This document shows, piece by piece, positions 8,168 through 51,348 of a stretch of 64,000 nucleotides of DNA. The stretch is from an uncultured Solirubrobacterales bacterium (GTDB taxonomy: Bacteria; Actinomycetota; Thermoleophilia; Solirubrobacterales; JBBDJG01): NCBI GenBank assembly GCA_963762195.1, contig CAVXJX010000012.1:127044-191043 (forward strand), written 5' to 3'. Below the pieces are notes generated by a model. That model did not search any database, was not told where the DNA came from, and worked only from the letters and a program-made list of their open reading frames with translations. Within the stretch, counting starts at the first letter, position 1. Each line of letters begins with the position of its first letter. The position numbers were made by a program, and so were the translations under genes.

Positions 8168-8400
8168 GCACCGCCGCGCTCACGTCGCTGTTCATCGACG
8201 TCGAGGTCGACGACGCGGTCGCCAGCGATCCTGAGCTTGCGCGCAAGCTGACCGAGGTGTGCCCGGTGGACATCTATGCGCAGAACGACGACGGGACACT
8301 GAGGATCGTCGAGGAGAACCTCGACGAATGCGTGCTCTGCTACCTGTGCGTGGAAGCCGCGCCCGAGGGGACAGTCCGCATCATCAAGAAATACGAGTAG
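8164..8400 (+). CDS. small ferredoxin-like protein (single Cys cluster motif)
   Basis: GTG 8164 overlaps the alpha-subunit stop (GTGA). 78 aa with ...EVCPVDIY...ECVLCYLCVEAAPEG..., i.e. CxxCxxC plus a remote CP. The rest of ORF 7324..8400 is shadow. Confidence 0.55.
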   Translation: MSTAALTSLFIDVEVDDAVASDPELARKLTEVCPVDIYAQNDDGTLRIVEENLDECVLCYLCVEAAPEGTVRIIKKYE

Positions 8401-8405
8401 CTGCG

Positions 8406-9503
8406 ATGCGCGCGCTCGTGCGTGATGCGATGAGCCGGGACTCCCCGCAGCTGAGGGCCGAGACGAGCGTCGTCGAGGCAGCGGCACTGCTGTGGGCGAA
8501 GGGCTGGATGCCGATCCCCGTGATCGAGACGGATGACCGGGTCGCGGGCGCGCTGTCGAGCAACGACATCGTGCGCGCTGTCGCCCAGAGGCTGGACCTC
8601 GAGCGAACCCCGGTCGGCCGGATCGCCACCACCGAGCTTCCACAGGTCGGACCCGACGACCCCCTCGCGGACGGGGCGGCGGCCATGGCGACGACGGGCC
8701 AGGCGATCGTACTGGTGATCGAGGACTCGCGGCTCGTCGGTGTCCTGACCCACACCGACCTGGAAGGGCGTGAGCTGATCGCTGCGACGCTGGGCCCCGT
8801 GGGTGCGCAGGTGATCACGGAGATCTCGCCCAACGACATCATGTATGCCGGCAGCTGGGGTGCGTACGCATACGCCGGGGTGACCGCGGTGCAGTGCATC
8901 CGCGAGGTGCTCGCCAAGCTCGATCGCCCGGATCCGTCCAGCATCCTCGACCTCCCGTGCGGACACGGACGGGAGCTGCGCTTCCTGCAGGTCGCTTACC
9001 CGGACGCGAGCATGGCGGCTTGCGACATCGACGAGGACGGCGTCGAGTTCTGCGCACGCGTCTTCGGAGCGCATCCGATCGTCTCGCACGAGGATCCGGA
9101 CGAGGTGTCCTTCGACCGGCGCTACGAGCTCGCCTGGTCCGGATCGCTGTTCACTCACCTGTCCGGCGATCGATGGCCAGGGTTCCTCGAGCTGTTCGCG
9201 CGCTCGCTCGTGCCCGGCGGGCTCGTGCTCTTTACAGCGAACGGTTTCCTGCCGGCGGAAATGCTGCGCAACCTTGGGCTCAGCCCCGACGATGTGGACC
9301 GGCTGCTGGACGACTTCAAGCGCACGCACTTCGGGTACGTGGACGTGGGTGACGGCAGCTGGGGCCTCTCGCTCGCGCGGCCGCGCTGGGTGAAGGAGCA
9401 GATCGAACGCTCGCCACTCGAGCTCGTGTCATACGAGCGCGGGGCATGGAAACCGCCGGTTCCCGCTCAGGACGTGCTGGTCTGCACCCTGCCGGCATCG
9501 TGA
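8406..9503 (+). CDS. CBS-pair domain fused to class I SAM-dependent methyltransferase
   Basis: ATG 8406. The N-terminal ~130 aa form two CBS-like units (...VVEAAALLWAKGWMPIPVIE..., ...QAIVLVIEDSRLVGVLTHTDL). The C-terminal part carries ILDLPCGHGRELRFL...DID...LVPGGLVLF, a Rossmann methyltransferase motif I/post-I pattern. Confidence 0.7.
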   Translation: MRALVRDAMSRDSPQLRAETSVVEAAALLWAKGWMPIPVIETDDRVAGALSSNDIVRAVAQRLDLERTPVGRIATTELPQVGPDDPLADGAAAMATTGQAIVLVIEDSRLVGVLTHTDLEGRELIAATLGPVGAQVITEISPNDIMYAGSWGAYAYAGVTAVQCIREVLAKLDRPDPSSILDLPCGHGRELRFLQVAYPDASMAACDIDEDGVEFCARVFGAHPIVSHEDPDEVSFDRRYELAWSGSLFTHLSGDRWPGFLELFARSLVPGGLVLFTANGFLPAEMLRNLGLSPDDVDRLLDDFKRTHFGYVDVGDGSWGLSLARPRWVKEQIERSPLELVSYERGAWKPPVPAQDVLVCTLPAS

Positions 9504-26389: not shown

Positions 26390-27442
26390 CTAGGTCTTCC
26401 GATCCCGGTCGCGGCTCGGTTGCACGCGCTTGGGCTCGCCCGGCATCTTCGGGTAGTCGGGCGGGTAAGGCATGTCGCCCTTGCCCTGCCGCTCATACAG
26501 CTCCAGCAGCGGCTCCAGCGAGTGTGTGCGGTCGTCGATCGCCTCGTGCCGATCGCCGACGCGGTCGAAGCGCGCCGGCATCGTCGCGACCGTGAAGTCC
26601 TCGGGCTGCACGTCGCCCAGCTCGTCCCAGGTCACCGGCGCCGACACGGGCGCACCGGGCTTGGGGCGCACGCTGTAGGCCGACGCGATCGTGCGGTCCC
26701 GCGCGTTCTGGTTGTAGTCGACGAAGATTTTCTCGCCGCGCTCCTCCTTCCACCACTTTGTCGTCACCTCACCCGGACGCCGGCGTTCGAGCTCACGCCC
26801 GAAGGCGATCGCAGCGTGGCGCATGTCGGTGAAGGTCCAGCGCGGCTCGGTTCGCACGTAGATGTGAACGCCACGGCCGCCGGAGGTCTTCGGGAAACCG
26901 ACATACCCCAGCTCCTCGAGCAGCTCGCGGGCGGTGGCGGCGACCCGCACGGCATCCGCGAAGTCGGTGCCGGGCTGAGGGTCGAGGTCGAGCCGCAGCT
27001 CGTCGGGATGATCGACGTCGGCGCGTCGCACCGGCCACGGATGGAACGTGATGGTTCCCATCTGCGCCGCCCAGCCGACGACCGCGATCTCGGTCGGGCA
27101 GATCTCGTCGGCCGAGCGCCCGGACGGGAATTGGATGCTCGCGGTCTCTACGTAGTCCGGTGCGCCGCGCGGGATGCGCTTCTGGAAAAACGCGTCCCCC
27201 CCGCCCTTCTCGCGCGTCGATAGGACGATTCCGGGATGCACGCCCTTGGGCCAGCGCTCCAAGGTGGTCGGCCGCTCGCGCAGGGCGCGCATGATCCCCG
27301 GGGCGACGGCGAGGTAGTACTCGACGACCTGGAGCTTCGTGATCGGGTCGCTCCCGTCACTCGGCGGGAAGATCACGCGCTCCGGATTCGTGACCCGGAG
27401 GGATCGTCCGTCTGCGTCGATCTCGATCGCTGGGGACGCCAC
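26390..27442 (-). CDS. stand-alone LigD polymerase/primase domain protein (NHEJ AEP primase-polymerase)
   Basis: Intact 350 aa with ...LRVTNPERVIFP...TKLQVVEYYLAVAP..MLRALRERP..LERWPKGV...FFQK...ITFHPW...PDELRLDLDP...FPKTSGGRGVHIYV...FVDYNQNARDRTIASAYSVRP... Confidence 0.85.
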   Translation of the reverse strand: MASPAIEIDADGRSLRVTNPERVIFPPSDGSDPITKLQVVEYYLAVAPGIMRALRERPTTLERWPKGVHPGIVLSTREKGGGDAFFQKRIPRGAPDYVETASIQFPSGRSADEICPTEIAVVGWAAQMGTITFHPWPVRRADVDHPDELRLDLDPQPGTDFADAVRVAATARELLEELGYVGFPKTSGGRGVHIYVRTEPRWTFTDMRHAAIAFGRELERRRPGEVTTKWWKEERGEKIFVDYNQNARDRTIASAYSVRPKPGAPVSAPVTWDELGDVQPEDFTVATMPARFDRVGDRHEAIDDRTHSLEPLLELYERQGKGDMPYPPDYPKMPGEPKRVQPSRDRDRKT

Positions 27443-28968: not shown

Positions 28969-30324
28969 ATGTCCTCCACCACCAAACAGCACGACGCGAT
29001 CGTCATCGGCGCCGGCTCCGCGGGCGAGACCTGCGCCGGCGAGCTCGCCTCCGGAGGCATGAAAGTCGCGATCGTGGAGCACGAGCTGGTGGCCGGCGAG
29101 TGCAAGTACTGGGCCTGCATGCCCGCCAAGACGCTGCTTCGTCCGGGCGAGGTGCTCGCAGCGGCACTCAGCACACCCGGTGTGCAGCGGGCGACGCGGC
29201 CCGAGCTCGACGCGAAGCGCATCCTTGCGTGGCGGGACTACATGGTGTCCGACTACGACGACACTGCGAAGGCACGCGCGCTCGAGGAGCAGGGCGTGAC
29301 CGTGGTAAGAGGGTCCGCCCACATCGCCGGCCGCGGCGTGGTCGCGGTGGGCGACGAGCGTCTCGAGAGCGATCGGATCGTGATCGCGACCGGATCGGTT
29401 CCGGCGATACCGCCGATCGAGGGCCTCGCGGAGCTGCCGGGAGTGTGGACGAACCGGGAGGCGATGGGCGCACGCGAGCTTCCGGACCGCCTGCTGATAC
29501 TCGGCGGCGGGCCCGTCGGCGTCGAGATCGGACAGGCCTTTTCGCGCATGGGCGTCTCCGTTGCGCTCGTCGAGCAGTCCGACCGGCTACTGCCCAACGA
29601 GATCGAGGCCGCCGGGCACGCGCTCGGCCGCACGCTGTCGGACGAGGGCATCGAACTGCACCTCGGCGAGTCCGCCGAACATGTCGCAGCGCATGGCGGG
29701 GGTTACGCGCTGACGCTTGGCGACGGCCGCAAGCTCGTCGGGGACAAGCTTCTCGTGGCGACCGGTCGCAAGCCGCGTATGGACGCCCTCGGCCTGGAGT
29801 CCGTCGGCATACATCCACCCGATCAAGGCATTCACGTCGACGAGCGGATGCGGGCCGGCGACGGCATCTGGGCCGTCGGCGACGTCACCGGGATCATGCC
29901 GTTCACGCACGTCGGCGCCTATCAGGCGCGGGTGGCCGCGGCGGACATGCTCGGGCAGCCGGCGCGCGCAGACTACCGTGCGATCCCGCGCGTCATCTTC
30001 ACGGATCCCCAGGTCGCGGCGGTGGGATCGACGGACGGGGAGCACGACGCGACGGTCGACCTGTCCGGGCTTGCACGCAGCGCGACCTACACGCAGGATC
30101 CTTCCGAGTGGCCGGGCTTCCTGACGCTGATCAGCGACGGGCGCAAGCTGACGGGCGCCTGCGCCGTCGGCCCGGAGGCCGGGGAGTGGCTCGGCCAAGC
30201 GACCCTCGCGGTCCGGGCGGAAGTCACGCTGGACGTCATGCGCGACACGATCCAGCCGTTCCCGACCTTCTCCGAGGCCTACCGCAAGGCCCTCGCGGCG
30301 TTGTATGAGAAGCTCTCGCGATGA
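28969..30324 (+). CDS. FAD-dependent pyridine nucleotide-disulfide oxidoreductase (class I, redox-active CxxxxC)
   Basis: Intact 451 aa with DAIVIGAGSAGE (FAD GxGxxG), GECKYWACMPAK (Cys pair), LLILGGGPVGVE (NAD site), GDGIWAVGDV and a C-terminal dimerisation-domain pattern. Confidence 0.85.
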   Translation: MSSTTKQHDAIVIGAGSAGETCAGELASGGMKVAIVEHELVAGECKYWACMPAKTLLRPGEVLAAALSTPGVQRATRPELDAKRILAWRDYMVSDYDDTAKARALEEQGVTVVRGSAHIAGRGVVAVGDERLESDRIVIATGSVPAIPPIEGLAELPGVWTNREAMGARELPDRLLILGGGPVGVEIGQAFSRMGVSVALVEQSDRLLPNEIEAAGHALGRTLSDEGIELHLGESAEHVAAHGGGYALTLGDGRKLVGDKLLVATGRKPRMDALGLESVGIHPPDQGIHVDERMRAGDGIWAVGDVTGIMPFTHVGAYQARVAAADMLGQPARADYRAIPRVIFTDPQVAAVGSTDGEHDATVDLSGLARSATYTQDPSEWPGFLTLISDGRKLTGACAVGPEAGEWLGQATLAVRAEVTLDVMRDTIQPFPTFSEAYRKALAALYEKLSR

Positions 30325-30980: not shown

Positions 30981-31613
30981 CTAACCGACGATGAACCCGG
31001 TGCCCTTGACTGCCTTCAGCACCTTCTTCATCGAGGCGGCCTTGTCGAAGTCCGCCGGCGCGGGCGGCTGGCCCACGAGGTTGCGAATCCACGCTGCGTG
31101 ACGGGCCTCGACGGAGTGGATGGACGCGGCCGCCTTCAGCACCACGGTCTGCTTGATCCGATGTACCTGCCCCGCGTACGCGGTGACACCCGTGTCCTCG
31201 AGCACGATCGCCGTTGCCTGGAACTTGGCCTGGTTCGTCACCGTGTCCTTGAAGTCGAAGGTCGGCTTCTTGACCGCCTTGCTCTTCAGGACGCTCTTGA
31301 GGAACGTCACGTGCGCGTTCTCATGGTCGCGTACCGTGGTCGCGAACTGGAGCGTCGGTCCGCTGAGCCCACCCTTGGCCACGGCCTGCGTGTAGAACTC
31401 GGCCTCCAGGTACTCGAGCGTCAACGCGTAGTTCAGGATCGCGACGTCCTGCTTCTTGGACTTCCGCGCCTCGGCGAGCTCGGGGAGCCCGCCGAGCAGC
31501 ACTCCGCCGGCAAGCAGCGTGCCGCCACCGACCGCGGCCTTGCGGAACATGTCAGCGCGCGTTTCGCCCGCACCGTCCGTGTCGACCATCTCTACCGTGA
31601 TGTGATCCGTCAT
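30981..31613 (-). CDS. exported ferritin-like (Ferritin_2-type, di-iron ExxH x2) protein, paralog 1
   Basis: 210 aa with signal-like ...DMFRKAAVGGGTLLAGGVLLGGLPELAEA. The core reads ILNYALTLEYLEAEFY...HENAHV...LEDTGVTAY...SIHSVEARHAA. Confidence 0.75.
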   Translation of the reverse strand: MTDHITVEMVDTDGAGETRADMFRKAAVGGGTLLAGGVLLGGLPELAEARKSKKQDVAILNYALTLEYLEAEFYTQAVAKGGLSGPTLQFATTVRDHENAHVTFLKSVLKSKAVKKPTFDFKDTVTNQAKFQATAIVLEDTGVTAYAGQVHRIKQTVVLKAAASIHSVEARHAAWIRNLVGQPPAPADFDKAASMKKVLKAVKGTGFIVG

Positions 31614-31646
31614 AGCGTGTTTCCTCTCTGTGAGGGCCGCAACTGA

Positions 31647-32414
31647 TTAGCGGCCGCTTGGACTTGAAACTGGTGTCGTCGTGGACGGCGGAACCGCCTT
31701 CGCAGCAATCGCGGCGAGCACGATGCTGGCCTCGTAGAGCACGAGCAGCGGGGCCATCGAGATCAGCATCGTGATCGGGTCCGTGCCGGGGAGCAGCATC
31801 GCGACGATCGCGATTCCGATGACCGCATGCTTTCGTCCGCGGCGCAACTTGCGCGGCGTCGTCAACCCGATGCGCGTCGCTGCCAGCACACCTACCGGGA
31901 TCTGAAACAGGATCCCCAGCGCTCCGAGCGTCATCGCAACGAAGCCGTAGTACTCGCGAGCGCGGATCTGGGTGTTGAACTCGCTGTCGTTGAAGTTGAC
32001 GAGGAAGTCGAGCGCCGCCGGCAGGACAAACAGGTAGCTGAAGACGACGCCCGCGACGAAGAGCACCGGCACCATCGCCAGCAGCGGCACCGCGACTCGC
32101 CGCTGGCCGCGACTGAAGGCCGGCAGCAGGAAGGCGTATGCCTCATAGAGGACCACCGGCAGCGACAGCAGGATCGCGGCGTAGGCCGCAACCGTGATCG
32201 TCGTCATGAACGGCTCGGACACTCCCAGCGTGACGGGCGTGAAATCGCCCGGCAGCGGTGCGTTCAGGAGGTCGAGGATCAGGTGGTTCTGCCAGAAGCA
32301 GAGCCCCAGTGCCACGAGGAACGCCGCGACCGAGATGATCAAACGGCTGCGGAACTCGTCGAGGTGCTCGACCATGGTCAAGCGCTCCTCGTGGGCGATT
32401 GGTGCGCGGAGCAT
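31647..32414 (-). CDS. tatC: twin-arginine translocase subunit TatC
   Basis: Intact 255 aa: ...MVEHLDEFRSRLIISVAAFLV...EPFMTTITVAAYAAILLSLPVVLYEAYAFLLPA...FVLPAALDFL...PGTDPITML... Six-TMS TatC pattern. Confidence 0.9.
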   Translation of the reverse strand: MLRAPIAHEERLTMVEHLDEFRSRLIISVAAFLVALGLCFWQNHLILDLLNAPLPGDFTPVTLGVSEPFMTTITVAAYAAILLSLPVVLYEAYAFLLPAFSRGQRRVAVPLLAMVPVLFVAGVVFSYLFVLPAALDFLVNFNDSEFNTQIRAREYYGFVAMTLGALGILFQIPVGVLAATRIGLTTPRKLRRGRKHAVIGIAIVAMLLPGTDPITMLISMAPLLVLYEASIVLAAIAAKAVPPSTTTPVSSPSGR

Positions 32415-32425
32415 GCGTGGTTGCT

Positions 32426-32674
32426 CTACGAGCCGCTGCGCACTGCTTCACGCGGCGCTGCCGCGGGCACCGGGGATGTCGGCACCGGGGGTGCGACGAC
32501 AGCCGCGATCTGCACCTGGTCGTCGTCGTCTTCCTTGTCGCTGGTCAGCGAGTCCTTGAACTCGCGCATTCCCTTGCCGACAGAACGCCCCATCTCGGGG
32601 AGGCGCTTCGGGCCGAACACGAGCAGTGCGATAACGAGCACTACAACGATTTCGAGTGGTCCTATTCCTGGCAT
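32426..32674 (-). CDS. tatA: twin-arginine translocase subunit TatA/E
   Basis: 82 aa starting MPGIGPLEIVVVLVIALLVFGPKRLPEMGRSVGKGMREFKDSL, followed by an acidic/proline-rich tail. Confidence 0.88.
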   Translation of the reverse strand: MPGIGPLEIVVVLVIALLVFGPKRLPEMGRSVGKGMREFKDSLTSDKEDDDDQVQIAAVVAPPVPTSPVPAAAPREAVRSGS

Positions 32675-32714
32675 GCGATCACCGATCCGTTTCTCTTGTC
32701 ATGTGCGATGGAGG

Positions 32715-33344
32715 TCATGCCCTGATGAGCGGCTTGACCGCGCTCAGCACCTGCTTCATGCGAAGCGTCTTGTCGAACGCGTCCGGGGCGGGAGCCATGC
32801 CGGACTGCTGCCTGACGGCCGCGGCGTGCCGGGCTTCGATCTGCACGATGCTTCCGGCCGCACCGAGCACCTTCGCCGACTTGATCGCGGGGGCCGCGCC
32901 GTTGTAGGCGGACACTCCCGTGTCCTCGAGCGTGACCGCGAGCTTCAGAAAGCTCGCCTCGTCGCTGATCGGAAACGAGAAGCGCGGCGACTTGACGGGC
33001 GTGCCGCCGAGGTCCTTGATCGTGCCGATGAGGGCGTCGACGTGCGCCTGCTCGGCGTCACCGAACTGCTGCGCCATCTTCTTCAGCTCACCGCGCAAGC
33101 CGGCCCTCTTGAGCGCCTTGCCGTAGAAGTCGGCCTCGAGGTATTCGAGGGTGAGCGCGAAGTTGAGGATCTCGACGTCGCCGCCTTCCTGCGCGAACGC
33201 CTGGCCGACGAACGGCGCGACAGTGCTCGCTCCGTAAACTGCACCGGCCGCCAGCGCTCCTTTCAGGATGAACGAGCTGCGACTGATGCCGTCGATCTCC
33301 ACGGTGCCGAGCTCCGGGTCGCTGAGTCGTGATTCGTTGTTCAT
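32715..33344 (-). CDS. exported ferritin-like (di-iron ExxH x2) protein, paralog 2
   Basis: 209 aa with signal-like ...ISRSSFILKGALAAGAVYGASTVAPFVGQAFA. The core reads ILNFALTLEYLEADFY...AEQAHV...LEDTGVSAY...SIVQIEARHAA. Confidence 0.75.
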   Translation of the reverse strand: MNNESRLSDPELGTVEIDGISRSSFILKGALAAGAVYGASTVAPFVGQAFAQEGGDVEILNFALTLEYLEADFYGKALKRAGLRGELKKMAQQFGDAEQAHVDALIGTIKDLGGTPVKSPRFSFPISDEASFLKLAVTLEDTGVSAYNGAAPAIKSAKVLGAAGSIVQIEARHAAAVRQQSGMAPAPDAFDKTLRMKQVLSAVKPLIRA

Positions 33345-33372
33345 GAGTTGCTCCTTCCGGGCGATGGATCGC

Positions 33373-34071
33373 CTAGGCGGTGACGATGAAGGGCTTGACC
33401 TGCTTCAAGACCTCATCGGCGGTTGCGGGCAGGGCGAATGGACCGTCGGGTGAGACGTTCTTCTTGATCGCGGCATTCAGGGCCGCTGCGTGGCGTGCTT
33501 CGACTGAGTGGATCGAAAGCGCGGCGGCAAGGACTTCCTTGCTCTTGATGTTGGCCGCCTGGCCGAGGTATGCGGAGGCGCCCAGGTTCTCGACGGTCGC
33601 CGCCAGGTCGAGGATCGCCGCCTGGTTCTCGAGCGGGAACTTCGACTGCGGCTTCTTCGCCGGCGTGCCGCCGAGCTTCTTGACGGTCGCCTCGAGCGCG
33701 TCCACGTGCTCCTGCTCGTGTTCGCCGAAGGTCTTTGCGACCTCCAGGATGCTGCCCTTGAGCATGCCGCTGGCCGCAGCGTCGCGGTAGAAGTCGGCCT
33801 CGAGATACTCGAGCGTCAGCGCGTAGTTGAGGATTCCCAGATCTCCCTTTCCAAACTGGCTTGTGCCGGAGTCCGTGGGCTGCTTCTCAGACTGCGTGGC
33901 AGTTGTGTCCTTGTTGTCGTCCCCGCACGCCGCGAGGAAGATGCCGAACGCGCTGGCCGCGCCCGTGCCTCCGACCATTGCAAGGAAACGCTTGCGCGAA
34001 GAGGGGTCGCGAGCGAGTCTCTCCATCGCGACCGGCTGTTGTTCGCTGCGCTCCGTCGTTGGATCAGTCAT
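33373..34071 (-). CDS. exported ferritin-like (di-iron ExxH x2) lipoprotein, paralog 3
   Basis: RBS AAGGGAG plus ATG 34071. The signal reads ...SSRKRFLAMVGGTGAASAFGIFLAAC (lipobox). The core reads ILNYALTLEYLEADFY...HEQEHV...VENLGASAY...SIHSVEARHAA. Confidence 0.75.
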   Translation of the reverse strand: MTDPTTERSEQQPVAMERLARDPSSRKRFLAMVGGTGAASAFGIFLAACGDDNKDTTATQSEKQPTDSGTSQFGKGDLGILNYALTLEYLEADFYRDAAASGMLKGSILEVAKTFGEHEQEHVDALEATVKKLGGTPAKKPQSKFPLENQAAILDLAATVENLGASAYLGQAANIKSKEVLAAALSIHSVEARHAAALNAAIKKNVSPDGPFALPATADEVLKQVKPFIVTA

Positions 34072-35664: not shown

Positions 35665-36123
35665 TCACGCGCACTGGCTTTCCTTTCGCTCGATCGCGTT
35701 CACCTTGTCCAGCCGGCGCTGGTGTCGCTCCTCCCCGGTGAACGACGCGGCCGCGAACGCGCGCAGGATGTCGCCGGCCAGCGCAGGGCCGATGACGCGC
35801 GCTCCCAGGCACAGCACGTTGACGTCGTCGTGCTCGACGGCCTGGTGCGCCGTGTAGGTGTCGGTCACGGTGGCGGCGCGGATCCCAGCCATCTTGGTCG
35901 CCGCCACCGCGACACCCGCGCCCGAGCCGCACACGAGGACTCCGCGTTCGGCTGCACCGCCGCGCACGGCCTCGCCGACGTCGACGGCCACGTCTGGATA
36001 GTCGACCGGTTCGGCCGAATGGGTGCCGAGGTCGATCACCTCGTGGCCTTCGTCCCGCAGCACGTCGAGCACCGTTTCCTTCAGCGGGAAGCCGGCGTGG
36101 TCGAAGCCGCAGGCGATCTTCAT
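35665..36123 (-). CDS. rpiB: ribose-5-phosphate isomerase B
   Basis: Intact 152 aa: MKIACGFDHAGFPLKETVLDVLRDEGHEVIDLG...GVLVCGSGAGVAVAATKMAGIRAA...AVEHDDVNVLCLGARVIG... Confidence 0.9.
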   Translation of the reverse strand: MKIACGFDHAGFPLKETVLDVLRDEGHEVIDLGTHSAEPVDYPDVAVDVGEAVRGGAAERGVLVCGSGAGVAVAATKMAGIRAATVTDTYTAHQAVEHDDVNVLCLGARVIGPALAGDILRAFAAASFTGEERHQRRLDKVNAIERKESQCA

Positions 36124-36809
36124 TGCCTCGACCCACTCGGAAGCAGCGCAGCCGCGGCCGCGTCCGTCAAGACGGTCAGCGTCCCACTCGCCGGGGCAAC
36201 GAGGCTCGCAGGCGCGTTGCGATCGGGCTCACCCGCGAACGAGCGCGCCACGGCCTCGGCCTTGCCGGTGCCCGTCACCAGAAAGAGGACTGCCCGTGCC
36301 GCATTGATCACCGGCAGCGTGATGGTCACGCGCGGCACCAGCGGTTCCATGCCTGCGTGCTCCACCCCCACCACGGAGCGGCGGTGCTCGTCCAGTGCCG
36401 GATCGTTCGGGAACAGCGACGCGCAGTGGGCATCGGGGCCGAGCCCCAGCAGCACGAGGTCGAACCTCGTCACCTCCGCGGCGAGCGCGCGCTCGTACGC
36501 GTCGGCGCCCGGGTGCGGACCGCGCTCCCCTTCCATGCGCCGCACCGCAGGCTGCTCCCCGGGCAGGCGATCGAGCAACGCGGCGCGCACCATCCCGTAG
36601 TTGGAGAGCTCGTCGTCGGGCGGCACGCAGCGCTCGTCGCCGAACCACAACGTGCAACGGGTCCAGTCGACGTCCATGGTCGCCAGCAGCTCGTACGCCG
36701 CGCGCGGAGTGGAGCCACCCGTCAGCGCGATGTGCCCGCCGTCGCTGATTGCTGCCGCAAGGCGGTCAGCGGCCACCGCGGCGGGATCGTCCACCACGAG
36801 CCGGTTCAT
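36120..36809 (-). CDS. pgl: 6-phosphogluconolactonase
   Basis: ATG 36809 overlaps the opcA stop (ATGA). Reads MNRLVVDDPAAVAADRLAAAISDGGHIALTGGSTPRAAYELLA...WFGDERCVPPDD..SNY...FDLVLLGLGPDAHCASLFP... 229 aa. Confidence 0.85.
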   Translation of the reverse strand: MNRLVVDDPAAVAADRLAAAISDGGHIALTGGSTPRAAYELLATMDVDWTRCTLWFGDERCVPPDDELSNYGMVRAALLDRLPGEQPAVRRMEGERGPHPGADAYERALAAEVTRFDLVLLGLGPDAHCASLFPNDPALDEHRRSVVGVEHAGMEPLVPRVTITLPVINAARAVLFLVTGTGKAEAVARSFAGEPDRNAPASLVAPASGTLTVLTDAAAAALLPSGSRQ

Positions 36810-37750
36810 GACGGGAGCATCGCGCGAGCGGCGGCCACCGCGGGCCGGTAGGTCGGATCGCGCAGCAGCGCCTGCCGCACACCCTCGCCGAGGATGCCGC
36901 TCTCGCCACGCGAGGCTCCGAGCACCGTCCACGCCGACTCGCCCCGCGCGGGCGTTGTGCGGCGTGCCGCGAGCCCGCCGGGAGCGCGGTCGAGCGAGAT
37001 CGACATTCCCTCGCTCGTCTCGAGCGTCAATCCGGCAAGGCCGGGGACATCAAGCGCGGTGGCCGGCTCGAGCGTGATCTGCACATCGCCGCCCTTCGCA
37101 TGCGCATCGCCGGCCAGCACCCCATCGCCGTCACCGGCGAGCACCTCCGGCGTCCATCCCAGGCGCGAGGCAAGCCAGCCGACCAGCAGCAGGGCCGCCA
37201 CCGCCGAGTCCGCACCGTGGCGCACCCTGACCGCGCTGATGTGCCGGAGCTCCGCCCGCCACTCCGAAGGGTCGAACGTGAATGCGACCCGCTCACGCCA
37301 CGGCGTGCTGCGCAGCCACGCCAGGTCGACCACATACACGCGCTCGGCCAGCTCGCTCACGCGGGCAAGCGACGTGGCGATGTCGGGCTCCTCCGTCGAG
37401 TCGACCAGCACCACATCGGCGAGCCTGAGCAGCGCGTCGACCGCCTCGGGATAGCCGTGGGGCGCCCACACCACCGTCGAGAGGCCACTCACGAGCAACG
37501 GATCCACGATCGCGTCGAGATGTGCCAGCTGCTCGGGGGCGAGGTCGAGCGTGACGTGTTCCCGGTCGCTGTTCTCGCCGCGGGGCTGCTCGGACCCCAC
37601 GCTGCAGATGATGGTGAACGACGGGTGGTAACGACCCACCCGTGCGAGCCTGTCCTCCACCTCCGCTCGGCGGTCGCGGTCGACGACCGCGACCATGTTG
37701 AGCACTCGTGCCGATCCGCCGGCTTCCATCAGACTTCCATCAGAGGCCAC
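36806..37750 (-). CDS. opcA: glucose-6-phosphate dehydrogenase assembly protein OpcA (N-terminus short/uncertain)
   Basis: Reads ...GGSARVLNMVAVVDRDRRAEVEDRLARVGRYHPSFTIICS...STVVWAPHGYPEAVDALLRLADVVLVDS...DLAWLRSTPWRE... The candidate GTG 37750 overlaps the zwf 3' end by 11 nt; an alternative ATG is at 37729. The upstream part of the ORF to 37918 is shadow. Confidence 0.72.
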   Translation of the reverse strand: MASDGSLMEAGGSARVLNMVAVVDRDRRAEVEDRLARVGRYHPSFTIICSVGSEQPRGENSDREHVTLDLAPEQLAHLDAIVDPLLVSGLSTVVWAPHGYPEAVDALLRLADVVLVDSTEEPDIATSLARVSELAERVYVVDLAWLRSTPWRERVAFTFDPSEWRAELRHISAVRVRHGADSAVAALLLVGWLASRLGWTPEVLAGDGDGVLAGDAHAKGGDVQITLEPATALDVPGLAGLTLETSEGMSISLDRAPGGLAARRTTPARGESAWTVLGASRGESGILGEGVRQALLRDPTYRPAVAAARAMLPS

Positions 37751-39287
37751 GCCATTTCGCCGGCGCGTCCAGCAGCGCGTCCGCCTCGGATGGTCCCGCC
37801 GACCCGGCGGCATAGACAGGCAGCGGCCCGGGCGTGGCGGACCAGGCCTTGAGGATCGGGTCGCAGATCTCCCAGAACGCGCGCACCTCGTCCTCGCGCG
37901 TGAACAAGCTCGCGTCACCGCGCATCGCGTCGAGGATCAGGCGTTCATAGGCTTCGGGCGACTCCGACAGGAAGCTCGTTCCATAGCGGAACTCCATGTT
38001 CACCGGGCGGATGCGCATGCGCGGGCCGGGGATCTTCGCCCCCAGCGAGAGCGACACGCCTTCGTCGGGCTGGACCGTGAGCACGAGCTGGTTCGGCTGC
38101 ACGCCGACGGAGCCAGCCTGCTGGAAGGCCAGATGCGGCACCGGCTTGAGCGTCACGGCGATCTCGGTGACGCGGCGCGCGAGGCGCTTGCCCGTGCGCA
38201 GGTAGAAGGGCACGCCGGCCCAGCGCCAGTTGGAGACCTCCAGCCGCAGCGCGGCATAGGTCTCGGTGGTCGAAGTGCCGGGGACTCCGTCCTCCTCGAG
38301 GTAGCCGGGACATACTTCCCCACCCGACACGCCGGGACCGTACTGGGCGCGCACCGACATGCCGGGCACCTCCTCCTCGGCCGGCGCCCTGATCGCCTGG
38401 GCGACCTTCACCTTCTCGTCGCGCAGCTTGTCGGCGGTGAAGGCCGACGGCGGCTCCATGCAGAGCAGCGTCAGCAGCTGGAGCATGTGGTTCTGGACCA
38501 AGTCGCGCAGGGCGCCGGAACCGTCGTAGTACTCGGCCCGCGTCCCGATCCCGATGTCCTCGGCCGCGGTGATCTGGACGGAGTCGATGTAGTTGCGGTT
38601 CCAGACCGGCTCGAACATGGCGTTCGCAAACCTGAACGCCAGCAGGTTCTGCACCGTCTCCTTGCCGAGATAGTGGTCGATGCGGTAGACCTGCCGTTCG
38701 TCGAAGACACCGAGGACCGTGCGGTTCAGGGCGCGCGCGGAAGCGAGGTCGTAGCCGAACGGCTTCTCGATCACGACGCGCACCGCACAACCCTTCTTGC
38801 GGTGCAGGCGAGCAGCGCCCAGTGCCTTCACGATCACGGGAAAGAACTCAGGCGCGGTCGAGAGGTAGAAGACGCGGTTGAACTCCACCCCGGCGTCGCT
38901 GTCGAACTCTTCGACCGCGTGCGTGAGCCGTTCGTATCCGTCCGGGTCGTCGAACGAACCCGGGACGTAGCGCGCCTGGCGCAGCAGCGCGTCGAGCACC
39001 TGCGGGTCCGGGCGCCGGCGGGAGTAATGCTCGATGGACTCGCTCACCTTCTGCCGGAAGACGTCGTCCCCGAGGTCGCGCCGCGAGAAACCGATCAGGT
39101 TGAAACGCTCCGGCAGCGAGCCCTCGTGCGCGAGGTTGTAGATGGCGGGAAACAGCTTACGCAGAGCGAGGTCGCCGGTTGCACCGAAGATGACGAGGGT
39201 CGTGGGATGGACCGGCAGGCGCTCGAGACCCTCCACCAGCGGGTTCTCCTTTTGCCCGGTCCGGCGCTGCTCGGCGACGGTCGCCAC
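37740..39287 (-). CDS. zwf: glucose-6-phosphate 1-dehydrogenase
   Basis: Intact 515 aa: ...LVIFGATGDLALRKLFPAIYNL...RIDHYLGKETVQNLLAFRFAN...IQITAAEDIGIGTRAEYYD..GALRDLVQNHMLQLL... Confidence 0.93.
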   Translation of the reverse strand: MATVAEQRRTGQKENPLVEGLERLPVHPTTLVIFGATGDLALRKLFPAIYNLAHEGSLPERFNLIGFSRRDLGDDVFRQKVSESIEHYSRRRPDPQVLDALLRQARYVPGSFDDPDGYERLTHAVEEFDSDAGVEFNRVFYLSTAPEFFPVIVKALGAARLHRKKGCAVRVVIEKPFGYDLASARALNRTVLGVFDERQVYRIDHYLGKETVQNLLAFRFANAMFEPVWNRNYIDSVQITAAEDIGIGTRAEYYDGSGALRDLVQNHMLQLLTLLCMEPPSAFTADKLRDEKVKVAQAIRAPAEEEVPGMSVRAQYGPGVSGGEVCPGYLEEDGVPGTSTTETYAALRLEVSNWRWAGVPFYLRTGKRLARRVTEIAVTLKPVPHLAFQQAGSVGVQPNQLVLTVQPDEGVSLSLGAKIPGPRMRIRPVNMEFRYGTSFLSESPEAYERLILDAMRGDASLFTREDEVRAFWEICDPILKAWSATPGPLPVYAAGSAGPSEADALLDAPAKWRGL

Positions 39288-45990: not shown

Positions 45991-48900
45991 ATGTCGCGCC
46001 CTCGCTCCTTCGAACGCGTGCGGAGAATCCCGCTCTTCGGGCGGGCGCTGGACTGGGGCATGGGGCCGAGCGCCGTCTCCCCCACCACCGCTGCCGCGGG
46101 CGCGCGCATCGCCGGGCTGAAGGTCACCGAGTCCGTGTGCCCGTACTGCGCGGTGGGGTGCGGGCAGCTCGTCTACACGCGCGGTGGCGAGCTGGTCGAC
46201 ATCGAAGGCAACCCGCGCTCGCCGATCAACCAGGGAACGCTGTGCCCCAAGGGGAGCGCGTCGCGCCAGCTCGTGCAGCAGCCGGGACGCCTGACGAAGG
46301 TGCGCTACCGGCGCCCGGGCGGCACGGAGTGGGAAGAGCTGGAGCTCGAGCAGGCCATGGACATGATCGCCGCGCGGGTGATCGCGTCGCGGGAGGCCGG
46401 CTGGCAGGACACCGAGCGCCACGGCTGGCGGGTGGACCGCACCCTCGGCTTCGCCCACCTCGGAGGGGCGACGCTCGACAACGAGGAGAACTACCTCATC
46501 AAGAAGCTGTTCACGGCGATGGGCGCGGTGCAGATCGAAAACCAGGCGCGCATATGACACAGCTCCACGGTCCCCGGTCTGGGGACCTCGTTCGGGCGCG
46601 GCGGCGCCACCACGTTCCAGCAGGACCTGCAGCACGCGGACTGCATCCTGATCGAGGGCTCGGCGATGGCGGAGGCTCATCCCGTCGGCTTCCGCTGGGT
46701 GATGAAGGCCAAGGAGCGCGGCGCGCACATCATCCATGTCGACCCGCGCTTTTCGCGAACCAGCCAGCTCGCCGATCGGCACGTGGCGATCCGCGCGGGA
46801 ACCGACATCGCGTTCCTTGGCGGCCTGATCCGTCACGTGCTGGAGAGCGAGTCGTACTTCCGCGAGTACGTCGTCAACTACACGAACGCGCCGACGATCA
46901 TCAACGAGCGCTACCGGGATGCCGAGGACCTCGGCGGCATCTTCTCCGGCTTCGATCCCGAGACCGGGACATACGACCGGTCGACCTGGGGCTACGAGGG
47001 AGGTGAGATGCCCTCGGCCGCAGGGGTCAGGGAGCACTCGGCGCAGGCGTTCGAGGACACGACCGGCGCCGGCATGCTCGTCGGCGAGGTGCCGCGCGAC
47101 GACACGCTGCAGCACCCGCGCTGCGTGTTCCAGATCCTGCGCCGCCACTTCAGCCGCTACACGCCCGAGACGGTCGAGCGCATCTGCGGCATCTCGCAGG
47201 ACGACTTCCACGCCGTGGCCGCGGCGCTGATCGCGAACTCCGGGCGCGAGCGCACGACTGCCTTCTGCTACGCGCTGGGCTGGACCCAGCACGCAGACGG
47301 GGCGCAGATGATCCGCACCGCCGCGATCCTGCAACTGCTGCTCGGCAACATCGGCCGGCCCGGCGGCGGAATCCTCGCACTGCGCGGGCACGCCTCGATC
47401 CAGGGCTCGACTGACATCCCGACGCTCTACGACCTGCTGCCCGGGTACCTGCACATGCCGCGCGCCGGCGAGCAGGAGCTCGACCTCGAGACCTACATCG
47501 CGACCGGCGGCTCCGACCGCGGCTGGTGGTCGGCGTTCGACAACTACATCGTGTCGCTGCTCAAGGCATGGTTCGGGGATGCGGCGACGCCGGCCAACGA
47601 CTTCGGCTTCGCGGCGATCCCCCGCATCAGCGGCAACCACTCGCATTTCGCGACGATGATGCGCATGCTCGACGGCGGCGTCGAGGGCTTCTTCGTGATG
47701 GGGCAGAACCCGGCGGTCGGGTCCCAGCACGCGGGGCTGCACCGCCGTGCGCTCGCCAAGCTGAGGTGGCTCGTCGTCCGCGACCTGGCCGAGATCGAGA
47801 CCGCGACGTTCTGGCGCGACTCGCCGGAGGTGCAGTCCGGCGAGCTGCGCCCGGAGGACATCGACACGGAAGTGTTCCTGATGCCTGCCGCCGCGCACGT
47901 GGAGAAGGAGGGCTGCTTCACGAACACTCAGCGGCTCGTCCAGTTCCGCGACAAGGCGCTCGAACCGCCGGGAGACGCGCGCTCGGAGCTGTGGTTCATG
48001 CACCACCTGGCCAAGCGCGTGCGCGCGCATTACGCCGGATCGACGCAGGCGCGCGACTGGCCGCTGGTGAACCTGCGCTGGGATTACCCGGAGCACGGCG
48101 CGACGCGCGAGCCCGACGTGGAGGCGGTGATGAAGGAGATCAACGGCTACGACGTTGCGACCGGGCGGCCGCTGTCGCTGTTCAGCGAGCTGCGCGCCGA
48201 CGGCTCCACCGCCTGCGGCTGCTGGATCTACTCCGGCATCTTCGCCGACGGCGTCAACCAGGCCAGGCGGCGCGAGCCGGGCGACCCGGACAAGGAGGGC
48301 GGCCACGTCTCACCGGAGTGGGCGTGGGCCTGGCCGGCGAACCGCCGCACGCTCTACAACCGCGCGTCCGCCGATCCGGCCGGGCGCCCGTGGAGCGAAA
48401 GAAAGAAGTACCTGTGGTGGGACGCCGCGAATGCGCGCTGGACCGGCTACGACGTCCCCGACTTCCCGGCCGACAAGCCGCCGGACTATCGCGCGCCGGC
48501 CGACGCCACGGGGATGGACGCGATCAGCGGGGACGACCCGTTCATCATGATGGCCGACGGGCGCGCGTGGCTGTTCGCGCCCAGCGGCCTGCTCGACGGC
48601 CCGCTGCCGACGCACTACGAACCGGTCGAGTCGCCGGTCCACAACCTTCTGTACCCGCAGATCGATGCGGACCCGGCGGCAATCCGCTGGCGGCGCCCGG
48701 AGAACCCGGTGCACGCCGTCGAGGACCCGCGCTACCCGGTCGTGGCGACGACCTTCCGGCTGACCGAGCAGCACACCGCCGGGGGCATGAGCCGCAAGGT
48801 CCCGTGGCTGGGCGAACTGCAGCCCGAGATGTTCGCGGAGATCGACCCCGTCCTTGCCCGCGCGCGCGGCATCAGCGACGGCGACTGGATGACGATCGAG

Positions 48901-49233
48901 ACCGAGCGCGCCGAGATCGAGGCCCGCGCCCAGGTGACCGAGCGCATGCGGCCGCTGCGCATCGACGGCCGGCGCGTGCACCAGATCGGCCTGCCGTGGC
49001 ACTGGGGCTACTCGACGCCGTACCCGGGCGACTCGGCAAACGACCTCACCGCGATCACCGGCGATCCCAACGTCTCGATCCAGGAGTCGAAGGCGTTCAC
49101 GTGCGATGTGCGTGCCGGGCGGCGCCGCGGGTCGTCGACCGAGCGCCTGCGAGGCGCCGCCGCGCCGCACCCCCCGGTGGCACCGAACCAGGACGACCCG
49201 CCGGCCGAAAACCCTCAGGAGGCGGGCCGGTGA
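45991..49233 (+). CDS. fdhA: formate dehydrogenase alpha subunit, molybdopterin enzyme with in-frame UGA selenocysteine at 46555..46557
   Basis: ORFs 45958..46557 and 46666..49233 are in the same frame. Reading through the TGA gives ...IENQARI-U-HSSTVPGLGTSFGRGGATTFQQDLQHADCILIEGSAMAEAHPVGFRW..., the conserved FdnG/FdhA Sec context. An N-terminal CPYCAVGCG Fe-S motif is present. The start at ATG 45991 is tentative. Confidence 0.88.
46569..46587 (+). promoter_or_regulatory. SECIS hairpin (GGUCCCC-GGUCU-GGGGACC) 11 nt downstream of the UGA
   Basis: Perfect 7-bp stem with apical loop GGUCU, the same loop core recalled for the E. coli fdhF SECIS. Confidence 0.72.
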
Positions 49234-50147
49234 CCGAGCTTGCCGTGCACCGGGTCGGCGCGCAGCGGATGGGCTTCTTCACCGACACGACCGTGTGCAT
49301 CGGCTGCAAGGCCTGCGAGGTCGCATGCAAGCAGTGGAACGACCTGCCTGCCGACGGGCCGAAGTCGCGCAAGGGCGGCTCATACGACCACACCGGCGAG
49401 CTGTCCGCGTCGACCTGGCGCCACGTCCGGTTCCTGGAGCTGCTCGAGCCATCAGAGGAGCGCCGCGCCCAGGCCGCCGAGGCACTCGCCGCCGGTGAAG
49501 GCGGAGCGGCTCCCACGCTTCCCGCGGACGAAACGTTCGACGTCGCGCAGGCAGTTGCCGACATGGATCGCTGGATCTTCATGTCCGACGTGTGCAAGCA
49601 CTGCACGAACGCCGGCTGCCTCGACGCGTGCCCGACCGGCGCGCTGATCCGCACCGAGCACCACACCGTCGTGCTGCAGGCCGACGTGTGCAACGGGTGT
49701 GGTTACTGCATCCCGGCATGCCCGTTCGGAGTCGTCGACCGCGACCACATCGACGGCCGGGCCGGCAAGTGCACGCTCTGCTACGACCGGCTGCAGGACG
49801 GGCTCGAGCCCGCGTGCGCGAAGGCATGCCCGACGGACTCGATCCAGTTCGGCCCCTACGACGAGCTCGTCGCGGTCGCCGAGCGGCGGGTGGCCGCACT
49901 GCACGAGCGCGGCGAGCAGGGCGCGTACCTGTACGGCGCCGGGGACGAGCCGGACGACGAGCTCGCCGGCGGGCTCGGTGCGTTCTTCCTGCTGACCGAG
50001 CCGCCGGAGCGCTTCGGCCTCCCGGCCAATGCCGAGTCACCCGTGCAGGAGAACGTCGTCCCCGCGACCGTCGCGGCGCTCGGCGCCGGGTTGCTGGCGG
50101 CAGCCGGCGCCGTGGTCGCGTTCGCGAGCGCCCGGAGGCGCCCGTGA
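49230..50147 (+). CDS. fdhB: formate dehydrogenase iron-sulfur (beta) subunit, 4x[4Fe-4S], C-terminal TM anchor
   Basis: GTG 49230 overlaps the fdhA stop (GTGA). Motifs: ...CIGCKACEVACKQWN..., CKHCTNAGCLDACP, CNGCGYCIPACP, CTLCYDRL...ACAKACP. The C-terminal helix reads VVPATVAALGAGLLAAAGAVVAFA. Confidence 0.88.
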   Translation: MTELAVHRVGAQRMGFFTDTTVCIGCKACEVACKQWNDLPADGPKSRKGGSYDHTGELSASTWRHVRFLELLEPSEERRAQAAEALAAGEGGAAPTLPADETFDVAQAVADMDRWIFMSDVCKHCTNAGCLDACPTGALIRTEHHTVVLQADVCNGCGYCIPACPFGVVDRDHIDGRAGKCTLCYDRLQDGLEPACAKACPTDSIQFGPYDELVAVAERRVAALHERGEQGAYLYGAGDEPDDELAGGLGAFFLLTEPPERFGLPANAESPVQENVVPATVAALGAGLLAAAGAVVAFASARRRP

Positions 50148-51348
50148 GCAAGCGGCGCGACATGACCCCGGCGACCGGCTCGCGCGGGGAGCCGGCTCGT
50201 GGCGCGCGGCGGTCGAGGGCGAGGACGTCGCACTCGCGCGCCCGCGTTCGGCGACGCGCGCGAGTCGTTCCTCTACGGGCCCGACACGCGCTACAGCGGC
50301 GCGGAGCCGCAGCCGGGCCAGGTCGCCGCGGCAAATCGCCGGATGCGCAGCGAGCGCGGCCGGCCGACCTGCGCGGGCCGTTCCTGAAGGCGCCCGTGTG
50401 GACCTGGGAGGTCCGGCTGTACTTCTGGCTCGGCGGTGTCGCGTCGGGATCGGCGTTCGTCGCGCTGGCCGCCGACCTGGCGGGCGACGAGCGCTCGGCC
50501 GCAGTCGCGCGCAAGGTCGCGCTCGCCGCCGTCGTGCCGGCACCGGCGCTGCTGATCTCCGACCTCGGCCGCCCGGCGCGCTTCCTCAACATGCTGCGCG
50601 TCTTCAAGCCGCGGTCGCCGATGAGCCTCGGCGCCTGGTGTCTGGCCGCGTTCAGCTCGGTCGGCGCGGCGGCCGTCGGCGCCGACCTGCTCGGGCGGCG
50701 TCGCACCGCGCGGAGCCTGGGCGCGGTCAACGCGCTGCTCGGCGGCTACCTCGGTTCCTACGCCGGCGTTCTGCTCGCAGCGACCGCCGTGCCGGTGTGG
50801 GCCCGCAGCCGCATCTTCCTCGGGCCGATCTTCGTCGCGACCGCGACGGCGACGGGCGCGGCCGCGACGCGGCTCGCGCTGACCGCGACGGGCCAGGCCG
50901 AGGACCATCCGACGCGCATCGCGCTCGCCCGCCTGGAGACCGCCGCGATCCTGACCGAGCTGGCGCTGTCGGCGGTGAACGAGCGCCGGCTCGGCCGCGT
51001 GGGCGACGCGTTGTCCGAGGGCGCGGCGGGCCGGCAGTTTGCCACCGCGAAGGGACTCGTCGGCGGCGGCCTTGCGCTCGGGCTGGTCGGCGGGCGGCCG
51101 CCGGGCGCAACGTGACCGGCGTCCTCTACCTCGCCGGCGGGCTGGCGTTCCGGATCGCCTGGGTCGAAGCGGGCAGGGCATCCGCCCGCGACGACGAGGC
51201 CGTCGCGCTCACGGCGCGCGGCCCGCAGCAGCGCAAGGCCGCCGACAATCGCCCGTCACGGGTACCCGCTCGTGCGCCCCTACGCGTTTGGAGCCGCACG
51301 ATCGGCCGGGCGAGCCTCGCGGTGGAGCGGTTGCTGCGACGACCTTGA
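50144..51348 (+). pseudogene. NrfD/PsrC-like membrane anchor subunit, frame-broken (N-terminus unresolved)
   Basis: GTG 50144 overlaps the fdhB stop. The core reads ...LRGPFLKAPVWTWEVRLYFWLGGVASGSAFVALAA...RFLNMLRVFKPRSPMSLGAW.... The typical C-terminus VTGVLYLAGGLAFRIAWVEAGRASARDDEAV lies in another frame, and the break at ~51095 needs 1 nt added. The first ~80 codons are Arg-rich in every frame and could not be resolved. Confidence 0.65.

Follow-up and report, generated by a model that had tools for sequence, protein, structure and literature searches.

The tatA and tatC genes of an uncultured soil actinobacterium of the order Solirubrobacterales (Thermoleophilia) lie, in the 64-kb stretch of DNA analyzed here (the window), among three genes for paralogous Ferritin_2 (PF13668) proteins, which we term F3, F2 and F1. 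The export signals of these proteins appear to be twin-arginine translocation (Tat) signals that have lost their second arginine, and the co-encoded TatC carries glutamine at the position of Escherichia coli Glu103. All five open reading frames (ORFs) of the cluster at 30981–34071 are present on the minus strand where the original prediction had placed them, in the order F3, F2, tatA, tatC and F1.

F3: 33373–34071, minus strand, 232-amino-acid (aa) Ferritin_2 lipoprotein (PF13668, E = 3.4e-41, 141 bits)
F3 signal: residues 1–48; motif S25-R-K-R-F-L-A-M at 33976–33999; lipobox L-A-A-C49
F3 metal ligands: E88/E91, E119/H122, E161 and E191/H194
F2: 32715–33344, minus strand, 209-aa soluble Ferritin_2 protein (PF13668, E = 7.5e-44, 149.7 bits)
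F2 signal: residues 1–51; motif S21-R-S-S-F-I-L-K at 33261–33284; Gly/Ala-rich h-region; cleavage site A49-F-A51, followed by Q
F2 metal ligands: E67/E70, E98/H101, E140 and E170/H173
tatA: 32426–32674, minus strand, 82 aa (PF02416, E = 1e-19; TIGR01411, 68.7 bits against a cut-off of 53.9)
tatC: 31647–32414, minus strand, 255 aa (TIGR00945, 176.3 bits against a cut-off of 132.7)
F1: 30981–31613, minus strand, 210 aa, third Ferritin_2 paralogue (PF13668, E = 6.4e-47, 159.6 bits)
F1 signal: residues 1–49; motif T18-R-A-D-M-F-R-K at 31539–31562; h-region AAVGGGTLLAGGVLLGGL; cleavage site A47-E-A49, followed by R
F1 metal ligands: E67/E70, E98/H101, E139 and E169/H172

The intergenic gaps measure 11–40 nt, there is no convincing terminator between the five genes, and an AAGGGAG ribosome-binding site lies 5′ of the F3 ATG at 34071. 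The cluster would form a single transcription unit that co-expresses TatA–TatC with three cargo proteins of its own. F1, F2 and F3 each cover the full PF13668 model (E from 3e-41 to 6e-47; gathering cut-off, 24.7 bits), which confirms the family membership assigned earlier from the letters. F1 and F3 are 43% identical to F2 in a three-way alignment (41–43% in a larger one), and the shared motifs quoted for the three paralogues are present there. The closest genome locus (L003) encodes a TatC 89% identical to that of the window. Since the G + C content at third codon positions (GC3) of the cluster equals that of the neighboring genes, there is no sign of recent transfer, and horizontal acquisition was rejected on composition.

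Export signals that lack the second arginine

All three N-termini share one plan: a long n-region, an [S/T]-R-x-x-F/M-hydrophobic motif, an uncharged Gly/Ala-rich stretch, and an AxA site or a lipobox; the LAAC lipobox with Cys49 bears out the description of F3 as a lipoprotein. RR occurs in none of them, being replaced by RA in F1, RS in F2 and RK in F3, and the rest of the Tat consensus is kept, with S/T at −1, Phe at +3 and a hydrophobic residue at +4 (TRADMF, SRSSFI and SRKRFL). RR-bearing relatives align in register (SRRKFM, SRRRFL and HSRRAFL). The original prediction had called the three signals degenerate and was right about F2 and F3, but it read RK in F1, where the pair is RA at R19. 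This arginine of T-R-A-D-M-F-R-K aligns with the SR of F2 and F3, and F1 orthologues of L002, L003, L139 and L012 keep DTR(A/L)D(L/F)F(R/K)K. R24-K25 was rejected as the twin position of F1, as the L012 orthologue has KK there yet keeps TR.

Loss of the second arginine extends through the family. Among 120 F2 orthologue clusters (≥63% identity), RR was found in none; the residue after the arginine is Ser in 48, Gly in 50, Gln in 16 and otherwise Ala, His or Glu, and Lys too never follows it. R22 of F2 is invariant, and L12, G19, F25, A30, G34, Y37, G38, P44, F45, A49 and A51 are ≥90% conserved. F3 is mixed: a diverse set of 32 lipobox-bearing representatives comprises 16 with RR, 12 with RK, 2 with RA, 1 with RS and 1 without the motif, and 62 sequences taken from loci likewise include both SRR(K/R)F and SRK(R/K)F. 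F1 relatives mostly read D-T-R-A-D-F-F-R-K, with RR at the aligned position in 5 of 28 (e.g., HSRRAFL). Because F3 orthologues from other lineages have canonical SRRKF or SRRRF at the aligned position and the remaining consensus is kept, the three signals are most simply read as degenerate descendants of Tat signals with a specific loss of the second arginine, and not as Sec-like signals.

The hydrophobicity of the h-regions agrees with this. Their maximum grand average of hydropathy (GRAVY) over 12 residues is 1.89 for F1, 1.33 for F2 and 1.78 for F3, compared with 1.75 for SufI, 2.52 for OmpA, 2.57 for DsbA, and 2.6–3.2 for the Sec-type signals of cupredoxin lipoproteins encoded at related loci. 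They are thus weakly hydrophobic like SufI and, together with the in-register RR homologues, uphold the earlier view of them as Tat rather than plain Sec or lipoprotein signals. A basic c-region residue is present in 48 of 119 F2 orthologues. A search with the NCBIfam Tat-signal models at E values up to 10 gave no match, and canonical RR controls were likewise unmatched. In the literature, we found no Ferritin_2 protein described as a proven Tat substrate.

Two further features of the N-termini were observed. F2 residues 10–51 (33192–33317) were modeled by AlphaFold as two helices with a predicted local distance difference test (pLDDT) score of 74–82, and the n-regions are conserved and acidic (PELxxVE-x-G in F2 orthologues and DxDGAxxE in most F1 relatives, where the window F1 reads just DTDGAGE). 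Signal peptides are not usually so conserved, and this segment might be where a chaperone binds.

TatC carries glutamine at the Glu103 position

In a cryo-electron microscopy study (2026), the second arginine of the signal forms a salt bridge with TatC Glu103, and the first contacts Glu15 and Phe94 (PMC13323110). Glu103 is reported to be almost completely invariant across all domains of life (PMC5539426), and E. coli TatC is disabled by E103G, E103K and E103A (PMC13323110). The window TatC is a homologue of six-helix E. coli TatC (9dzz, E = 6e-32) that keeps the equivalents of Glu15 (E20) and Phe94; its equivalent of Glu103 is Gln104 (codon 32103–32105, within FSRGQRR). This substitution, at the partner site of the second arginine, points the same way as the degenerate signals and had been overlooked in the original prediction.

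We took a census of the Glu103 column in 168 aligned TatC sequences (164 distinct after locus/protein duplicates were dropped). Glu is present in 152 of the 168 and Gln in 12, namely nine window-clade sequences, L061, L063 and P0315. The window-clade Gln sequences are ≥77% identical and consist of five locus-derived copies with their database counterparts P0271–P0275. In a neighbor-joining tree, the Gln-type TatCs form three separate lineages (the window clade, L061/L063 and P0315), with the window clade falling among ordinary Glu-type TatCs, to which it is sister at 67–74% identity. Position 103 is the sole column with a residue that is common to the two Gln lineages whose context is known and absent from all 153 Glu-type TatCs. 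At all seven loci of known context, the Gln-type tatC adjoins Ferritin_2 (the window, L001, L002, L003, L139, L061 and L063), and a cupredoxin gene also adjoins six of the seven. The closest Glu-type TatCs are all in the ordinary qcr context of the order. No mention of TatC E103Q, and no paper on a single-arginine cargo family or on natural loss of Glu103, was found in the literature; three things are new, namely a cargo family with a single invariant arginine, a TatC that has naturally lost Glu103, and the linkage of both in the genome.

Genomic context of the Ferritin_2 and tatAC genes

Conservation was examined in a TatC-anchored sample (43 loci from GTDB species representatives) and an F2-anchored sample (80 metagenome loci, 43 of them ≥4 kb). 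tatA and tatC are adjacent wherever both are covered in the TatC-anchored loci. In the standard block of the order, they follow genes for an aminotransferase, a Rieske protein, cytochrome b, cytochrome b/c, UbiE, a polyprenyl synthase, a small gene and dcd, and precede a conserved gene whose 250–270-aa product has no Pfam match. The Rieske protein of this block carries TRRKVF; as tatA–tatC ends the Rieske/cytochrome b block, the translocase normally follows a classic cargo. Six Glu-type loci that we inspected (L127, L129, L131, L133, L134 and L135) are all situated downstream of the Rieske/cytochrome b operon and have no Ferritin_2 gene close by.

The cluster is kept in relatives whose TatC is 77–95% identical (L001, L002, L003, L139 and a 13-kb contig carrying P0001/P0271). 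Within the TatC-anchored sample, Ferritin_2 lies ≤8 kb from tatC only in L003, L007/L009/L010 (divergent) and L012. Other gene orders are tatA-tatC-F3-F2-cupredoxin (L061 and L063), F3-F2-tatA-tatC (L055, a 3.7-kb locus), F3-F2-cupredoxin-tatA (L116 and L121), F2/F3 divergent from tatAC (L007, L009 and L010) and F1-like-tatA-tatC (L012). Canonical tatAC loci totaling ~0.5 Mb yielded no Ferritin_2 gene, so the adjacency is far above chance. The F2-anchored loci with tatA or tatAC are confined to L061, L063, L116, L121 and L055, apart from a lone tatA 4.6 kb away in L077, and each of the 43 loci of ≥4 kb has F3 immediately upstream of F2. The core unit is therefore the F3–F2 pair of a lipoprotein and a soluble protein, and tatAC linkage is a minority state found in about six gene orders. 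The conserved translocase–cargo adjacency that had been proposed holds among close relatives and recurs in at least four further arrangements, but it is not general.

The description of three dedicated cargo paralogues was overstated for F1, the least stable member, with a truncated copy in L001 and a relocated one in L002. In L001 (12178–12468), just the C-terminal half of the domain is left, as a 96-aa product, and the gene appears to have decayed. The L002 copy of F1 lies upstream on the opposite strand and adjoins a Pyr_redox_2 gene; the same gene family occurs near the window F1, at 28969–30324.

In the closest relatives, a gene for a cupredoxin lipoprotein, a small blue-copper protein, stands between F2 and tatA (L001 10669–10995, L002 10667–11005 and L003 7410–7694). 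The window has only a 40-nt gap there (32675–32714), so its cupredoxin gene was evidently lost. Cupredoxins also occur beside F3–F2 in L046, L058, L061, L063, L116, L121 and L139, with a contig-edge fragment in L073; those of related loci have short, highly hydrophobic Sec-type lipoprotein signals without RR. The usual neighbors of F3–F2 are genes for an extracytoplasmic function (ECF) sigma factor and a zf-HC2/RskA-type anti-sigma factor directly downstream (20 loci, e.g., L066, L069, L070, L089 and L100, where F2 lies at ~8001–8630), with a DtxR/IdeR-family repressor gene some genes further on. A lipoprotein and a secreted paralogue encoded beside sigK/rskA-like genes recall mycobacterial mpt83/mpt70. 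This context suggests an envelope stress or metal-related role.

The Ferritin_2 proteins as putative two-metal enzymes

The two ExxH motifs and two upstream glutamates noted earlier withstood a wider comparison, as the Glu/ExxH/Glu/ExxH set (E67 with E70, E98/H101, E140 and E170/H173 in F2) is invariant in 56 aligned family members. AlphaFold (AF2) predicted a bundle of four long helices for F2 (pLDDT 85.6). The top Foldseek matches of this model were structures of tardigrade RvFeMP-1 (8w9k and 8kce, ~33% identity), which F2 also matched among PDB sequences (phmmer, E = 2e-15). In the M1 site, F2 E67 and E98/H101 align with RvFeMP-1 Glu51 and Glu90/His93.

The function of the family had been described as unknown, which is out of date: RvFeMP-1 and Deinococcus radiodurans DRB0118 are metallophosphatases that dephosphorylate sugar phosphates and nucleotides, including damaged ones, at low rates, and their physiological metal is unsettled (PMC11616004). 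The RvFeMP-1 crystal contains a Zn/Mg dinuclear site, and the enzyme is most active with Ni or Co after stripping with ethylenediaminetetraacetate and metal re-addition (PMC11616004). Asp135 is required by RvFeMP-1 for its phosphatase activity, and DRB0118 with Gly194 at that position is still a phosphatase (PMC11616004). All three window paralogues have Gly there (LEDTG, LEDTG and VENLG); with the second Glu on helix 1 and no IgG-like domain, they are DRB0118-like. Desiccation survival is reduced in a DRB0118 knockout, characterized relatives are dimers, and the PF13668 members of Deinococcus, plants and tardigrades are secreted proteins whose signals were omitted for expression (PMC11616004).

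The ligand set needed for the proposed di-iron center is thus kept, but neither that center nor a role in desiccation gained support. The one relative with a solved structure contained Zn/Mg and is a phosphatase; the Glu/ExxH/Glu/ExxH set of the window proteins would fit a di-iron or di-manganese redox site equally well. By analogy, phosphatase, as the best-documented activity of the family, is the most likely activity of the window proteins, with redox chemistry as the alternative; the cupredoxin gene that recurs beside the Ferritin_2 pair hints at electron transfer. We commit only to the description of this cargo as a putative exported two-metal enzyme pair at the cell surface. Tandem arrays of two to six Ferritin_2 domains also occur within single proteins in public data (P0121, 1273 aa, and numerous representatives of 430–650 aa), which fits domains that work as dimers or pairs.

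Search for a second tatC and other candidate Tat cargo

No second tatC was found in the 64-kb window, nor in a GTDB scan of genomes with Ferritin_2-linked tatAC, including that of L003, a scan that recovers only a fraction of tatC genes. A motif scan for RR-type signals in the window gave none among the ordinary ORFs; one candidate, the N-terminus of a formate dehydrogenase, was spotted later by eye. It belongs to an actinobacterial-type formate dehydrogenase operon at 45991–51115 on the plus strand. The alpha subunit (NF041513) has an in-frame TGA at 46558–46560 (ENQARI*HSSTV), the usual selenocysteine position, and the part downstream of the TGA (890 aa) reaches 1416 bits on its own, above the cut-off of 1400. 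Downstream follow genes for a 4Fe-4S beta subunit (49230–50147) and an NrfD-like membrane subunit (~50180–51115).

The flanks of the Ferritin_2–tatAC cluster are ordinary chromosomal context. They include a pentose-phosphate cluster with overlapping gene ends at 35665–39287 on the minus strand (rpiB assigned by Pfam; pgl, opcA and zwf named from translations alone) and a stand-alone LigD primase-polymerase gene at 26390–27442, also on the minus strand.

A proposed cargo–translocase unit with relaxed recognition

The reading that we favor, to which we give about even chances of being right, is that the cluster is a cargo–translocase unit using relaxed Tat recognition. F3, F2 and F1 would be four-helix-bundle two-metal Ferritin_2 proteins of the DRB0118/RvFeMP type that probably acquire both their fold and their metals in the cytoplasm before Tat exports them in the folded state. 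F3 would be a lipid-anchored surface protein, F2 its soluble partner and F1 an accessory paralogue; because the F3 and F2 genes are always adjacent and characterized relatives are dimers, an F3–F2 heterodimer is possible. The signals would have kept the first arginine, the Phe and a weak h-region while losing the second arginine (RK, RS and RA), and the co-encoded TatC would have lost the matching carboxylate (Glu103 to Gln). With the Glu103–second-arginine pair gone, signal binding would depend on the Phe pocket and on the contact of the first arginine with Glu15/Phe94. Once exported, the proteins would most likely contribute to tolerance of envelope stress, either as a metal-dependent hydrolase (phosphatase) or through redox catalysis.

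Several observations weigh against this reading. About 33 of the 43 Solirubrobacterales tatAC loci come after the Rieske/cytochrome b operon and lack a nearby Ferritin_2 gene, and tatAC was found in none of the 13 F2-anchored loci with full 8-kb flanks; with most F3–F2 pairs off tatAC and most tatAC near the qcr operon, the clustering is optional. F2 lacks the second arginine even where the adjacent TatC keeps Glu (L007, L009, L010 and L055), and at L055 an RK-type F3 is encoded beside a TatC of the Glu type. Given the universal single arginine of F2 and the L055 case, Gln is not needed for cargo in which another residue follows the arginine (R-x), and L055 also rules out a strict rule that RK cargo goes with Gln TatC. 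In the other direction, P0354 (L140 294–1058), a single metagenomic TatC in an ordinary tatA–tatC–downstream-gene context, carries Ala in place of Glu103 and Gln in place of Arg104 (PAFSPTAQRLA), either as a real variant or as an assembly error. A further limit to the co-variation is that Gln is not entirely restricted to Ferritin_2 clusters. In E. coli, a single arginine suffices only with a more hydrophobic h-region (PMC5539426); the F2 h-region is no more hydrophobic than that of SufI, so compensation of the E. coli suppressor type is absent. Finally, the formate dehydrogenase alpha subunit starts MSRPRSFERVRRIPLF, with an RR pair at its N-terminus, and may be a conventional Tat cargo of the same genome; if the window TatC is the sole TatC, Gln104 must still accept RR.

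The strongest competitor, which we regard as possible though clearly less probable, is that an ordinary housekeeping tatAC came to lie among cargo genes by relocation. The sole tatAC would have moved from its site after the Rieske/cytochrome b genes into a Ferritin_2 cluster, Gln104 would be near-neutral, and the neighborhood would reflect at most co-regulation. R-x signals would then work with any Thermoleophilia Tat, or F2 and F1 would ride bound to F3, which has the strongest motif. The modest branch that separates the window-clade TatC from its Glu-type sisters, the agreement of tatC GC3 with its neighbors and the failure to find a second tatC in the GTDB scan all fit relocation, as do the Ala103 variant in a canonical context and the RK cargo beside a Glu-type TatC in L055; the single arginine of F2, being universal, cannot depend on Gln, and the invariant F3–F2 pairing and dimeric relatives (PMC11616004) fit hitch-hiking. 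Relocation sits less easily with the loss of a near-invariant residue at least two times independently, both times in the tatC of a Ferritin_2/cupredoxin cluster and in none of ~150 other known or canonical ones, or with the recurrence of the adjacency in about six gene orders. F2 moreover keeps a highly conserved signal and AxA site, which a pure hitch-hiker would not need.

A stronger form of the favored reading holds that the Ferritin_2-linked tatAC is a second, cargo-dedicated translocase beside an ordinary qcr–dcd tatAC, with a receptor site that co-evolved with its cargo: the cargo would have given up the second arginine and TatC its Glu, at least two times independently. We consider this unlikely. 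If true, it would be the first natural matched change of Tat motif and TatC site, and an orthogonal “single-arginine” channel.

Improbable, in our judgment, is export by Sec (and Lgt/Lsp), with the N-termini as ordinary Sec or lipoprotein signals and the tatAC neighborhood irrelevant to the route. None of the three proteins would pass a rule-based Tat predictor that requires RR, the cupredoxins of related loci are clearly Sec-type lipoproteins, and eukaryotic PF13668 proteins use ordinary secretory signals (PMC11616004). The h-regions, however, are far less hydrophobic than Sec signals from the same loci (1.3–1.9 against 2.6–3.2), the n-regions, at 18–25 residues, are long as well as conserved, the S/T-R-x-x-F-hydrophobic motif lines up with that of canonical SRRxF relatives, and basic c-region residues of the Sec-avoidance type are frequent. 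Equally hard to credit is an uncleaved, functional segment (membrane helix, chaperone-binding or auto-inhibitory) in the first 50 residues of F2 and F1, with cytoplasmic or N-terminally anchored proteins, for although N-terminal conservation is unusually strong (twelve F2 positions at ≥90%), AF2 places helices at residues 10–51 (pLDDT 74–82) and the acidic n-region is conserved in F2 and most F1 relatives, AxA closes an uncharged stretch of typical signal length, the F3 lipobox stands at the equivalent place, and Deinococcus, plant and tardigrade relatives are secreted.

Relation to the twin-arginine debate and to known systems

The twin arginines and TatC Glu103 are regarded as near-invariant hallmarks of Tat, and the reason why they are needed is debated; in one view, they mainly keep weakly hydrophobic signals off Sec. 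The present data bear on this debate by providing a large natural family whose Tat-type signals have a single invariant arginine and no compensating hydrophobicity, and natural TatC variants without Glu103 that adjoin this cargo. Such signal/receptor pairs are evolution-tested material for swapping and could yield an orthogonal export tag and translocase for biotechnology. They also tie the Ferritin_2 or “desiccation-related” family to a defined bacterial context, a lipoprotein and soluble pair that in relatives is often accompanied by a cupredoxin, ECF sigma and anti-sigma factors and a DtxR-type regulator.

Genes that adjoin tatC have been used before to nominate Tat substrates (PMC3827258). 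The closest analogue of the cluster is phoD-tatAd-tatCd of Bacillus subtilis, a minimal and substrate-specific Tat system encoded with a metal-enzyme cargo; tatAy-tatCy with EfeB/QcrA/YkuE offers a second comparison from that species. As in phoD-tatAd-tatCd, whose cargo is PhoD (PMC3827258), TatA and TatC share one cluster with a putative metal-dependent exported enzyme that they would transport. Unlike the TatAdCd system, the window encodes three Ferritin_2 paralogues as cargo, with signals that lack the second arginine (PhoD has RR), and a TatC with Gln at the Glu103 position, and there is no evident Pho-type regulation.

Tat-dependent lipoproteins occur in actinobacteria and haloarchaea, and F3 likewise combines a Tat-like motif with a lipobox. 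The usual rationale for Tat export of metalloproteins is cytoplasmic folding and metal loading, which secures the right metal, as for cyanobacterial MncA. In contrast to these precedents, the F3 motif in the window clade is RK.

With RvFeMP-1 (8KCE/8W9K), DRB0118, plant PCC13-62 and fungal Rds1, the window proteins share PF13668, the M1 Glu and ExxH ligands and an N-terminal export signal, and with DRB0118 the Gly at the position of RvFeMP-1 Asp135; having no IgG-like domain, they belong to “clade 2”. Unlike the Zn/Mg site of the RvFeMP-1 crystal, the full Glu/ExxH/Glu/ExxH set is nearer to di-iron or di-manganese carboxylate proteins, and unlike the RvFeMP-1/PCC13-62 relatives, the window has a lipoprotein and soluble pair with a third paralogue, and Tat-like rather than eukaryotic Sec signals.

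Exceptions to the twin-arginine rule are on record. Salmonella TtrB is cited as having a natural KR Tat signal (Hinsley et al. 2001, cited in PMC7317946), and hydrophobic suppressors in SufI showed that a single arginine can suffice and that changes of TatC E103 can be bypassed (Huang and Palmer 2017; PMC5539426). Natural exceptions of the TtrB type are isolated and keep a basic pair, whereas here the arginine is followed by Ser, Gly, Gln or Ala across whole subfamilies. Compared with the SufI suppressors, the h-regions of the Ferritin_2 signals show no gain in hydrophobicity, and the change in the receptor is natural rather than engineered.

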